A stretch of DNA of 46,854 nucleotides. Origin: a virus (Duplodnaviria; Heunggongvirae; Uroviricota; Caudoviricetes). Within the stretch, counting starts at the first letter, position 1. The number at the start of each line of letters is the position of its first letter. Positions 27,001 to 33,000 of this stretch are shown here, piece by piece. The stretch spans positions 1 to 46,854 of IMG/VR virus record IMGVR_UViG_2548876964_000013; one strand, 5' to 3'. Made by a program: the position numbers.

Positions 27001-30000
27001 TGCTCCTCGTTGTAATCCCGTCCAAATACGGTGTTACTGGTTTTTACGCCAGCCAGATCAGGCATTGAGGGGGCAAAAAACTCGTAATCGCTCAGATCAC
27101 CACGCTGAATAAGTTCACGAATCGTTGTAGGCTTGAGCAGGCATTCGTAGTACTTCCCCATCCAGGCTGCGAACGGGGTGCCGGAAAGTCCAAGAACCCT
27201 GATGTCTCTGTCCCGGATAACCTCAAGTAACGCACGACGCTTCATGTGTGCTTCATCGATGATCAGCAGATCGATGTTGTCAGGAAACTCACGACGGATC
27301 AGCGTGTCGGCACTGGCAATCTGAATCAGTCGTGACGGGTCATAGTTAGGGTGATCACGCCATACAAAACTGATTTCTTCCCACGGCAAACCGTATTCGG
27401 TGAAACGTTCCGCTGTCTGGTTCAGCAGGATGGTGTACGGACAGACAAACATCACCCGCATACCACGTTCAACCATTCCGGCAGTGACGAATGCTGCAAG
27501 ACCAGTTTTGCCAGAGCCAGTGGGTGCATACATCAGGTACGTGCGATGCTGTTTCCACTGGTGCCGCAGCTGGTTTAAACCGCGCTCCTGAGCAAAGTTT
27601 GGGGTGATTTTCAGCATGACGCCCCCTTGCCATTCGCCGGGATGATATCGATCCCAGCATCGCTATAACTGGTCAGTTTCTTTGGCATTCGAAGCAACAC
27701 AAAGCCTTCAGTGCCACGACGTGCCAATTCACGCAATTTCATGACTGAGCGGGGTCGCGGAGAGCTACGATCGATCTCGATAGCCACACTCCCACCAGTT
27801 TTTGCTGTTGCGAGAATATCAACACGGAAATTTCTGCCATCGATTCTTACTGTGACATTGCTTGCCACATGCATCCCCTGTGACTCAAGGATCGTTACGA
27901 CATCAGCCAGAAAGCTGTAACGCTCCTCTGTTCTCAGTGGTACAGTGCTCAGTGTACGGATCAGTGCCGATTTGGTTGCTGCTGACATAGTTTATCACTC
28001 AATAGTTAGCTCGATAATTATTTCACCAGGAACTATCGCGCGCTTATACAGTGATCTACCTAACCTATGTACCTGCCTTCTGGCCTAGGCCAAGGGATAC
28101 AGGCCTTACCAACGACTCCACCCCCTTACCCCCTCCTCGCTTCCTTTCAGGAAATTAGTTGCATGTGAAATTATTTCTAGCGCAACTAACCGCCATCATG
28201 GTGTCGGGGGAAACTTCCGTACCGCTACTGGCGAAAGCATCCAGCCACGGCTGGCTCTCGCGTACTTCTGGACATACACCCGTAACCGGGTGTTGGCGCT
28301 CCGTCTTGCCCTGTTGCCCTTCCTGAACGATACAGGCTCCTTGTCCCACTCTTCCTGGTACACTCTCGCGTACTCTGCTGCAATTTTTACCCGGGTGGTC
28401 GGGTCTAGCTGTAACAATTGCTCCTGTATCCAGTCCCGATCAGCATCACAGTACTGCTCGGGCATAACCGTTTTGATTTGCCTGTTCACTCACACCTCCG
28501 ATGGGCTGTGTGTCCAGGATTAATCATCGCCTCTTACGAACGCAGGGAACGGACGAACCTCTTCCGCCTCAACTGTGCCGTCATCAAAGGTTTTGACGTA
28601 TATTTCTCGTCCGACGAGAAGCGCTTTACTGATTGCACTCTGCGCCACGCCAAAGTCCTTAGCGGCTTTCTTTTGGCCGAACCTGTATACGTAATCAGCC
28701 AGGGTCTCTTTTTTCATCGCCATAACTGACTCCTTCAAAATGCCCATATCATTACGCACAGTTATTAAAATGTCAACACCGCAGATATTTCATTACATAT
28801 AACCAAAGGTGATATGGTATGAACATGAAAAAGAAACCGTTAACCCCTGAGCAACTGGAAGACGCCAAGCGTCTGAAAAGTATTTTTAACGCTAAAAAGA
28901 AAGAGTTAGGCCTGTCGCAGGAATCATTAGCCTATGAATTAGGTGTTACCCAAAGCGCTGTTAATCAGCTAATGGCTGGCATCAACGCCATAAATGCCAG
29001 CCACGCAGCACAGCTTGCTAAGATACTGAATGTAAAGGTCGGAGATTTCAGTCCCAGCCTGGCAAAATCTATTGCAGAAATGGCGCTCGCAATTGAAGAG
29101 CCATTAACTCGTGTCCCCGCTTACGAATATCCGTTACTCTCCTGCGTACAAGCTGGCGCATTCTCAATGGATGATATTTCGTACACCGCAAAAGATGCGA
29201 TTAAATGGATCTCCACCACCACAAAAGCCAGTGACAGGTCGTTCTGGCTGGAGGTCAAGGGGCATTCAATGACCGCACCGCAGGGTGGTAAACCCAGCTT
29301 CCCTGAAGGTATGCTGATACTCGTTGACCCTGAACGGGAAATCGAGGATGGCGATTTTTGCGTGGCCCGAATGAACGGCGATGAATTTACCTTCAAACGA
29401 TTCATTCGTGAGAGCGGTAAAGCGTACCTGGAGCCGCTCAACCCACGATTCGACATGATTGAGTGTAACGAAAACTGCCAGTTTGTCGGAAAGGTCATCA
29501 AATCGCAGTGGAATGATGAGACTTTTGATTGAGCTCACAGAGTGATTTGACATCCTTCACGCCTGAAGAATGTGGAGGATGTCAAAAGCACGTTGGCATC
29601 ATCATGCCACGTAAAGAGGATTAGTTATGCTTCAAAAGCTAGACGTCGCAGACAGCGTGCGTCGCGAGCTGTCTCCCCGTACCGCGCGTAAACACAAAGC
29701 AGAGTTCGGCCAGTTCATGACGCCTTCTGGCGTGGCCCGTTTTATGGCCTCCTTGTTTCCACCGAGCACAATGAAAACTTGCCGTCTACTGGACGCAGGC
29801 GCTGGTTTAGGCGCACTGTCTTGCGCCTTCCTCGACCGTTGGCTGGTTGGCGAGTTTGGCTTTGAGTCTGTCGAGGCAACAGCCTACGAAATCGACAAAA
29901 AGCTGTGTGGTCACCTTGCGAAGCACTTAACCGGGTACAGGAGAGTGACGCCCCGCATCATCGAAGGGGATTATATTGAGCTGGCAACCGCCGAAGGTCT

Positions 30001-33000
30001 ACAGGATCGAGGTTATACCCATGCAATACTTAATCCGCCTTACAAGAAGATCAATAGCCAGTCAGCCCACCGGCAGGCTCTTCGCACTGTCGGTATCGAG
30101 ACGGTAAATCTGTATTCCGCCTTTGTTGCACTGGCTGTAGGTGAGGTTGCACCTGGCGGGCAGATAGTGGCCATAATCCCACGTAGTTTCTGCAACGGAC
30201 CGTATTACCGTCCGTTCCGTAATTTCATACTTGAGCGGGCAGCAATCCGCCATATTCATTTGTTCGAATCACGTAGCAAAGCTTTCAGGGATGACGATGT
30301 GTTGCAGGAAAATATTATCATCCGCCTGGAGCGTGGAGGCCGTCAGGAGGCTGTTACAGTCACAACTTCGACCGATGATAGCTTTTTTGACCTGGTCACC
30401 TACGAACACCCATTTGACCAGATTGTGTACCCGGACGATTCGGAGCGGTTTATTCATGTGCCGACCACGCTCGAGAAAAGCACCATTGAGTTATCATCTG
30501 CCGTACAATGTTCGCTGGCTGATATTGGCGTGAAGGTATCGACCGGACCGATAGTTGATTTCCGACTGAAAGCTCATTTGCGCAGCATGCCAGAAGAAGG
30601 AACTGTTCCCCTGATCTACCCGAGCCATTTGAGTATGAGTAGCACTGTCTGGCCTGTGGAAGGTTTGAAGAAACCCAACGCAATCATGCGCAACGACGAG
30701 ACAGAAAAGTGGCTTTACCCGAACGGTTTTTATTGTGTGGTGCGTCGTTTCTCGTCGAAGGAGGAAAAGCGCCGAGTGGTAGCAAGCGTCGTTGATCCTG
30801 CTACCTTCAGTGAGTATTCAGTGTTGGGATTTGAAAATCACATGAACGTGTTTCATGAGAACAAACATGGGTTACCCGAGGCGCTGGCCCGTGGCTTGGC
30901 CGTGTTCCTGAACACTACCGCAGTGGATAAGTATTTCCGTCGCTTCAACGGGCATACACAGGTCAATGCAACCGACCTCAAGATGATTAAGTACCCAAGC
31001 CGTGACACTCTGATAGAGCTTGGCAAGTGGGCTATGCAACAAGAAACTCTCACGCAAGAACATATTGACGCTAAGCTAGGAGCTCTGACTGCATGAACAA
31101 CCAAAATGATTATATTGAGGCCGCTCAGCAAATTATAGCATCCTTAGGCCTGCCCAGAGCGCAGCAGAATGAGCGTTCTGCTTTGTGTTTGCTGGCACTC
31201 CTGAACCTCACACCGGGAAAAGCATGGGCCGACGCGGAAAATCCGCTTGTGGGCATTACACCAATCATGAATTGGGTTCGGGAGCACTACGGCAAGGTCT
31301 ACGCACCCAATACTCGTGAGACATTCCGCCGCCAGTCTATGCATCAGTTCTGCGCTGCTGGAGTAGCCCTCTACAATCCGGACAAGCCCGATCGCCCAGT
31401 GAACAGCCCGAAGGCTGTTTATCAGATCGAACCTGCTGCTCTGTCCATGCTACGCACTTTCGGCAGCCCGGCATGGCACGATAGCCTTGCAACCTATTTA
31501 GCCGAGCGTGAAACGCTGGTTACCCGCTATGCTAAGGAGCGCGAACAGAATCGTATCCCTGTTGAAATTGCTGCGGGCCAGCAAATAACCCTCAGTCCCG
31601 GCGAGCACAGCGAACTTATCCGTGCCATAATAGAGGACTTCGCCCCACGTTTTGCTCCGGGTAGCGTGCTGGTCTATGCTGGCGACACTGGCGAAAAGTG
31701 GGGCTACTTCGACGCTCCACTGCTGGCCGGGCTAGGTGTTGATGTGGATTCACACGGTAAAATGCCAGATGTGGTGCTACATTTTACTGCGAAAAACTGG
31801 CTGCTACTGGTTGAGTCTGTCACCAGTCATGGACCGGTTGATGGGAAGCGGCATGCTGAGCTTGCCAGGCTGTTTGCCGGATCAACAGCCGGACTTGTCT
31901 ATGTGACCGCTTTTCCAAATCGCTCCATCATGGGGCGATATCTTGGTGAAATCGCATGGGAAACAGAGGTATGGGTGGCTGATGCACCTTCTCATCTTAT
32001 TCACTTCAACGGAGTGCGATTTCTTGGCCCCTACTCTACTGAATGAGAACAGGACCAGATAAATAGCCCGGCCCATGCGCCGGGTTTTTCTTTGCATATC
32101 CCCTCCTGTTATCTGTCCCCTTAAAAAATAAATCACTTTAAAAATCAGTTAAGTAATAATTTCTCGTCCTTAAAAAAGCACCGACGGTATTTACATGAAA
32201 ATAACCGCAAGTTATATTTATTTCAAGCCAGAAACATCGCGCCCTTACACAGGGCTACATAAATCAGTCGTACGGCGCGACTTAACCCGCCGCAAAATGC
32301 TCTTTAACAATCTGGAGCTTTACAGCGTCAATGACCTGTTTAGACCCCTACACGTAAACGTGCTGTATCATCGGGTGCGATCCGGTCGATGAGAGAGTAT
32401 CCCCGCGCGAGAGCGAGAACGGCGTGAGAACGGGCAACACTGGCAGGAAGTTGGCGCTGACCAATACAGGGAATGTTTTGGGGTGTGGTGAAGGGTTCAT
32501 GGACGGGAATATGTCGCACGTAAAGCGGCGAGGCCCGAGGGACTATTGCTGAAGATAAGTAGGCCGAATCGGGTCGAAATGGGTCTCCCACCTGCCACAT
32601 CGCCAAAGCATTTCCGAGAAAGGACGGTATTGACTGCGTGTGATGCCGGGGCTATATTGGGCGAACACCTTATAAAACGGGTGTCGGGATTCTCACCCCG
32701 CTGACAATCGAGGCGATACAGACGCGCCAGCGTCTTTTTTTGTATCGACATACACGCACATCTTATCAATGGTGGGCTGTATGGGGCCGACTTCGGTCGG
32801 GCTGGTTCCCTTGATTGCCAGTTGTGAGAACCCTGTACAGTCCACCGCCAGCGAGCTTCTCACCTCCTGCGGTGGTTATTAATCACCAATCAAGGAGGCT
32901 GCCATTATGGCTACTATCCCAGTCCTTTCTCAACCTGAAATCACCATTTCCAATGGCCGCGCTGTTACTACGTCCTTTGCCGTTGCCGAATATTTTTGCA

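Follow-up and report, generated by a model that had tools for sequence, protein, structure and literature searches.

The window analysed here is the whole 46,854-nucleotide stretch of the IMG/VR virus record IMGVR_UViG_2548876964_000013 (positions 1 to 46,854). Directly downstream of the cI repressor gene it carries two genes, called M (methyltransferase) and R (endonuclease) below, that very probably constitute the EcoGIII type II restriction-modification (RM) system, functional in the lysogen. An EcoGIII pair beside cI is already known and has been published since 2012. The additions made here are minor, namely a resolvase remnant at the left edge of the cassette, a variable slot after cI, and natural variants in which R is broken or deleted. 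The features of the locus are listed below.

28520-28759, minus strand: cro, divergent from cI (Pfam Cro, E 4.8e-34)
28750-28765: operator OR1 (exact match to a footprinted operator)
28772-28788: operator OR2 (exact match to a footprinted operator)
28792-28809: operator OR3 (exact match to a footprinted operator)
28819-29532, plus strand: cI repressor (Pfam HTH_3 and Peptidase_S24; 100 % identical to cI of phage P13374)
29547-29585, plus strand: hairpin just after the cI stop, belonging to the phage cI module (14-16 bp stem, no U tract)
29586-29624, plus strand: remnant of a serine-recombinase gene, its last 12 codons, KHVGIIMPRKED and stop (homology to a Serratia nevei cassette; resolvase ends in three loci)
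29627-31096, plus strand: M.EcoGIII, gamma-class N6-adenine DNA methyltransferase, CTGCAG (domain matches, identity to P13374 ORF31, specificity from the literature)
31093-32046, plus strand: R.EcoGIII, BsuBI/PstI-family type II endonuclease (Pfam domains, identity to P13374 ORF30, SdaI homology, motif)
32065-32093, plus strand: intrinsic terminator ending the cI-M-R unit (hairpin and tract)

Identification of the EcoGIII genes

M encodes 489 aa and R 317 aa, and R has its own ATG, which overlaps the stop codon of M as ATGA. An earlier note on this DNA had given the positions and sizes of both open reading frames (ORFs), the overlap, their location on the cI strand and the terminator, all of which are borne out to the base.

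In M, the motifs FMTP (residues 30-33), LLDAGAGLG (54-62) and NPPY (136-139) occur in the order X, I, IV that is characteristic of gamma-class enzymes, and the assignment of M to that class in the earlier note was correct. M also matches the Pfam Eco57I methylase domain and, over its full length, the PADLOC MTase_II model (E 5e-248). A profile search of the 317 aa protein had been named beforehand as the check for an endonuclease domain, and both domains of the BsuBI/PstI family were found. These are the N-terminal helix-turn-helix (HTH) domain BsuBI_PstI_RE_N (PF17728; E 1.2e-54, 184.4 bits, 137 of 140 profile positions) and the catalytic domain BsuBI_PstI_RE (PF06616; E 4.6e-61, 205.2 bits, 153 of 154 profile positions), each with a gathering cut-off of 27. 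R also matches PADLOC REase_II (E 1.6e-168). These matches for M and R are far beyond chance. Among NCBIfam models, R had no match and M weak partial matches only. The architecture of R is an N-terminal winged HTH (wHTH) followed by a PD-(D/E)XK-type catalytic domain, and the family motif KMPD-x14-ESVTSHGP-x4-KR is intact in an alignment with 13 relatives (40-91 % identity) and SdaI (PDB 2IXS).

All 489 residues of M are shared with ORF31, and all 317 residues of R with ORF30, of P13374, the Stx2a phage of the O104:H4 outbreak (prophage in strain C227-11). The pair, which had been thought a possible relative of EcoGIII, is thus EcoGIII itself. Its cro, cI, terminator, operators and phage type are also the same as in the O104:H4 prophage, and there is no difference inside the locus; the carrier here is a PA2/VT2phi_272-like variant. 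Rare codons tabulated for EcoGIII from REBASE (AUA at codon 15 of R and CUA at codon 5 of M) fall at the same positions in the ORFs of the window, and the annotated start codons of M and R therefore agree. Gene identities, intactness and layout come from the present analysis, and specificity, cleavage, phage restriction and methylation of the lysogen from the literature on identical proteins.

R is homologous over its full length to SdaI (CCTGCAGG; PDB 2IXS; E 1.2e-77). Both have an N-terminal wHTH and a C-terminal catalytic domain, and their PD...E motifs align. However, SdaI recognizes 8 bp, and its VKSKGP stands in place of the VTSHGP of EcoGIII and the other family members. The prototypes BsuBI (Bacillus subtilis) and PstI (Providencia stuartii) belong to the same Pfam endonuclease family as R, a match made by family and not by direct sequence comparison. 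According to the literature they resemble EcoGIII in pairing a gamma-class N6-methyladenine methyltransferase of about 500 aa with an endonuclease of about 320 aa, and in recognizing CTGCAG. The earlier note had likened the pair to this family in both size and gene order. The sizes agree, and the tandem order M then R is that of the close relatives, but not that of PstI itself, in which we take the M and R genes to be divergent. Relatives found in IMG/VR at 40-43 % identity also have M divergent from R.

Position of the pair beside cI

The repressor has 237 aa, with an HTH and an S24 self-cleaving domain. DNase-footprinted operators of the repressor from O104:H4 (BAA2326) have been published (PMC5977221), and the window contains exact copies of all three, so that its immunity region is the characterized one. 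The operator region (28750-28809) contains PR and PRM. M starts 94 nt downstream of cI on the cI strand, and the terminator after R consists of an 8-bp G+C-rich stem (32065-32086) and then TTTTTCTTT, with its end at about 32093.

In phage lambda, rexA-rexB occupies the same position, directly after cI, on the cI strand and before the terminator of the immunity transcript. That the EcoGIII pair sits in a rexAB-like slot, as the earlier note proposed, is confirmed by the layout and had already been published. Chakraborty 2018 (PMC5977221) and Yin 2015 (PMC4587872) placed the pair beside cI, where it takes the place of rexAB or cII/cIII; Yin 2015 did so for the PST2 phage cluster, which includes PA2. 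The two pairs are alike in outline role, both being defence functions expressed by a prophage, but rexAB acts by abortive infection and EcoGIII by restriction of unmodified DNA. A Pfam search found no Rex domains in M or R, and the likeness is one of position and role, not of family. There is also no ORF for a small HTH controller (C-protein) between cI and the terminator, and the pair does not fall in the class of C-protein-controlled RM systems.

Origin of the cassette

DNA homology to a cassette in Serratia nevei begins at 29586, right after the hairpin, and continues to the end of R. In S. nevei (locus L013) and in two further loci (L018 and L051), a serine recombinase ending in LYKHVGVITPRQ and stop terminates 12-16 nt before M. 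Because the window reads KHVGIIMPRKED and stop where those loci have the resolvase end, the phage retains a 12-codon resolvase remnant, which marks the left junction of the cassette and explains the sequence just upstream of M. The stretch (29586-29624) includes a small palindrome (29594-29609) and the ribosome-binding site of M.

Homologues of R with 70-91 % protein identity, accompanied by M homologues with 55-84 %, were found in more than 598 species genomes from many phyla (loci L008-L087), and M was always immediately upstream of R, in tandem. The cassette was acquired from a mobile RM unit linked to a resolvase, and units of this kind are widespread in bacteria. A search of GTDB representatives for a bacterial donor identified none, the best DNA identity being about 80-85 %, and at this level no recent donor is visible. 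Across the homologues R was consistently better conserved than M, the reverse of what is expected for RM systems.

Contents of the slot after cI in related prophages

EcoGIII loci were found in 103 phage records and in 139 of 5426 complete Escherichia coli genomes, where they were chromosomal in every case. In this genome set the RM genes occupy 141 places in the 139 genomes, whereas a probe for the C-terminal half of cI found 152 places in 147 genomes. The slot variants (loci L002, L003, L004, L005, L006 and L007) are as follows.

PhiR12_3 and E. coli G8: only the last 104 codons of R, M and the preceding 213 R codons being lost
UCPROB-001: a small membrane peptide, an SDH-family protease and HicAB
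Strain 48: HicAB alone
Lyz12581Vzw: the RM genes, then a SocA-family pair
ArgO145, Stx2_09E025 and Stx2_EH2011: R frameshifted by 1 bp, so that M is an orphan

With such varied contents, the slot behaves as a bay for accessory genes, in line with the rexAB analogy.

Transcription of M and R

M and R are probably co-transcribed with cI from PRM and would form the distal part of that transcript. For lambda rexAB, co-transcription with cI has been shown; for EcoGIII it is suggested by the layout. No plus-strand terminator or sigma-70-like promoter was found in a scan from 28776 to 30291, which includes the 94-nt gap. The nearest promoter-like sites (32190-32218 and 32630-32658) are both beyond the terminator after R, and are presumed to serve leftward transcription. 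The pair therefore has the arrangement of rexAB-like cargo, on the cI strand, directly 3' of cI and closed by a terminator before the next promoter-like sites. Read in this way, cI, M and R would form one PRM transcript ending at the strong terminator, as lambda reads rexAB.

The Lyz12581Vzw/O145 group has a cI that differs in its N-terminal DNA-binding half (69 % identity overall), but keeps its C-terminal half together with the gap and M-R (97 % and 97.8 %) as one block. The cI C-terminus, gap and RM genes travel as one module that is common to two heteroimmune phage groups. An unrelated metagenomic temperate phage (locus L107, 2529-5951) has the same layout, with a cro-like gene, a repressor of the S24 type that shares 29 % identity with cI of the window, a 4-nt gap, M (65 %) and R (74 %).

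Two points weigh against co-transcription. The hairpin at 29547-29585 is very stable, the 116-nt gap region folding at -39 kcal/mol (z = -3.7), and could attenuate or process the cI-M transcript. PRM is reported to be weak in this phage, with about 18 repressor molecules per cell (PMC5977221), and, as methylation is nonetheless complete, the simple scan may have missed an additional promoter. The same observations favour a constitutive promoter belonging to M and R, located within either the 3' part of cI or the gap, which would make them independent of PRM and of cI autoregulation. PRM output is low while lysogens are methylated at 99-100 %, a strong hairpin follows cI, and in bacteria the same cassette works with no cI upstream. 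We nevertheless consider such a promoter rather unlikely. The scan gave no plus-strand promoter-like site over 28776-30291, and the 41 nt that precede M are leftover coding sequence and not a promoter region. In L107 just 4 nt separate the repressor from M, and full methylation can be reached with few methyltransferase molecules. Co-transcription from PRM remains the better account of the layout.

A TTGACA at 29547-29552 was considered as part of a promoter in the gap and rejected, as there is no acceptable -10 element. The hairpin was likewise rejected as a canonical intrinsic terminator, because neither strand has a U tract. Its stem is kept and its loop differs in PhiR12_3, which lacks intact RM genes, and it is absent from UCPROB-001. 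An Rfam match to MIR394 in the gap (23 bits, gathering score 60) is a spurious match to a hairpin. In the literature consulted for co-expression of cI, M and R, Berger 2019 (PMC6580645) gives expression of cI and cro only, and the RM genes do not appear in its supplements.

Activity and biological role

As cited in Forde 2019 (PMC6602927) and Cooper 2014 (PMC3893438), Fang 2012 found that M.EcoGIII methylates CTGCAG, that the R enzyme is biochemically active and cleaves CTGCAG, and that the system protects against lambda-like phages. Single-molecule real-time (SMRT) methylomes of strains in which M is 99-100 % identical record CTGCAG methylated at 2390 of 2390 sites, 2434 of 2434 sites and 98.8 % of sites (PMC6602927, PMC3893438), which agrees with the expression in lysogens that the earlier note had expected. 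Cloned EcoGIII restricts plasmid conjugation (PMC4288162). Against a functional reading it must be said that the Fang 2012 results are taken second-hand from the papers that cite them.

In a lysogen, M.EcoGIII would methylate the adenine in both strands of every CTGCAG, and R.EcoGIII would cut incoming DNA that lacks this mark, so that the prophage would shield its host and itself from phages and plasmids. With M first and translation of R coupled to it through the ATGA overlap, methylation would precede cleavage in a newly lysogenized host. As there is no C-protein gene, gene order and overlap are the only visible devices that might delay R. The window has 10 CTGCAG sites against 13.2 expected. 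As this count, made over the whole window, gives no sign that CTGCAG is avoided in the phage, the phage DNA would rely on methylation. The immunity region has no CTGCAG site, the nearest being at 25724 and 45715.

That restriction of incoming DNA is the selected function has to be weighed against other possibilities. One is prophage addiction, in which loss of the prophage would dilute M faster than R, unmethylated CTGCAG would be cut and cured cells would die. Post-segregational killing is established for several type II RM systems (Kobayashi and colleagues), and the HicAB toxin-antitoxin pairs that related prophages hold in the same slot fit a slot for either addiction or defence. On the other side, a clean in-frame deletion of both RM genes in an O145:H28 strain gave cells that grow like the wild type (PMC8257988), though killing on loss of the prophage is a different question, and natural deletion and frameshift variants persist. 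Since double deletions are viable and decayed variants exist, addiction is not absolute. Restriction of phages (as cited in PMC6602927) and of plasmids (PMC4288162), in contrast, has been shown, and, while the two roles are not exclusive, we think it improbable that addiction is what was selected. A mainly epigenetic role, with CTGCAG methylation reprogramming host expression and restriction secondary, draws on the report that in O104:H4 about 1,900 genes were expressed differently, and growth was altered, once the RM genes had been deleted (Fang 2012, as cited in PMC6602927). This role is less probable again than addiction, as an intact and highly conserved R argues for selection on cleavage, and the immunity region itself contains no CTGCAG site.

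Decay of the system in this window, leaving R inactive and M an orphan as in ArgO145-type phages, might be considered in view of the R-frameshifted and M/R-deleted variants in other phages and of the single-base indels in stx2A and nanS-p in the window. It is contradicted by the sequence, in which M and R are full length and 100 % identical to proteins reported to be biochemically active, and in which 23684-34147 does not differ from PA2, and we give it practically no credence. An active defence system carried by the prophage therefore remains the preferred reading. A more ambitious proposal can be put forward only tentatively. In it, the cI C-terminal half, hairpin, M, R and terminator would be a single PRM operon in an exchangeable defence/addiction bay, the RM genes would derive from the resolvase-linked cassette, and R and M dosage would be tied to the hair-trigger repressor circuit. 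If that tie were real, loss or induction of the Stx prophage would be costly, favouring persistence of high-virulence phages.

EcoGIII gives lysogens of STEC (E. coli that produce Shiga toxin) a barrier to phages and plasmids and a genome-wide methylation mark. The type of phage that carries it was behind the 2011 O104:H4 outbreak and is found in many O157, O145 and O111 strains.

The carrier phage and other features of the window

By DNA identity, the phage carrying the locus is a Stx2a-converting phage of the PA2/P13374 type (PST2, Oslovirus). The 4 kb at 28400-32400 are 100 % identical to the Stx2a phages PA2, PA8, VT2phi_272, Stx2a_F765, phi346 and phi349, and 99.8 % identical to P13374.

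PMC5977221 describes the region of about 1 kb that follows R as non-coding. Two Rfam matches in it exceed the gathering score, isrK at 32665-32740 with 58.7 bits and C4 antisense RNA at 32765-32852 with 77.1 bits, and the gene for a Rha-family regulator (ORF 32907-33554) begins just downstream of them. Within C4, the segment CCTTGATTG at 32809-32817 is exactly complementary to CAATCAAGG at 32887-32895, a stretch that overlaps the ribosome-binding site of the Rha-family gene. This complementarity suggests antisense control of the P1 immI type.

Elsewhere the window has a few single-base differences from PA2. In stx2A (21755-22714, minus strand), an A/T homopolymer has one extra base at 22456, which changes the reading frame after about residue 86. 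Either the toxin gene is a pseudogene, or the homopolymer was misread in sequencing. At 20127, a missing C splits the gene for the 645-aa nanS-p-like esterase of PA2 (19050-20986, minus strand) into two overlapping ORFs, one with DUF1737 and SASA and the other with DUF6645, and there is a further 1-base difference in a T run at 19041. Because these indels are isolated, they hint at assembly errors.

The window has an intact MT-A70 methyltransferase gene (42834-43460), without the IS629 insertion sequence (IS), and this gene is interrupted in PA2. The family, which is distinct from M, includes a prophage rRNA methyltransferase that is reported to affect induction and virulence (PMC10810198). 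The two ends of the window (1-376 and 46455-46852) are inverted matches to the same PA2 sequence, which sits at the end of, or just beyond, an annotated IS ('mobile element protein'). Near the right end are a tyrosine integrase gene (44290-45534, minus strand) and a tRNA-Arg(cct) gene (45655-45729).

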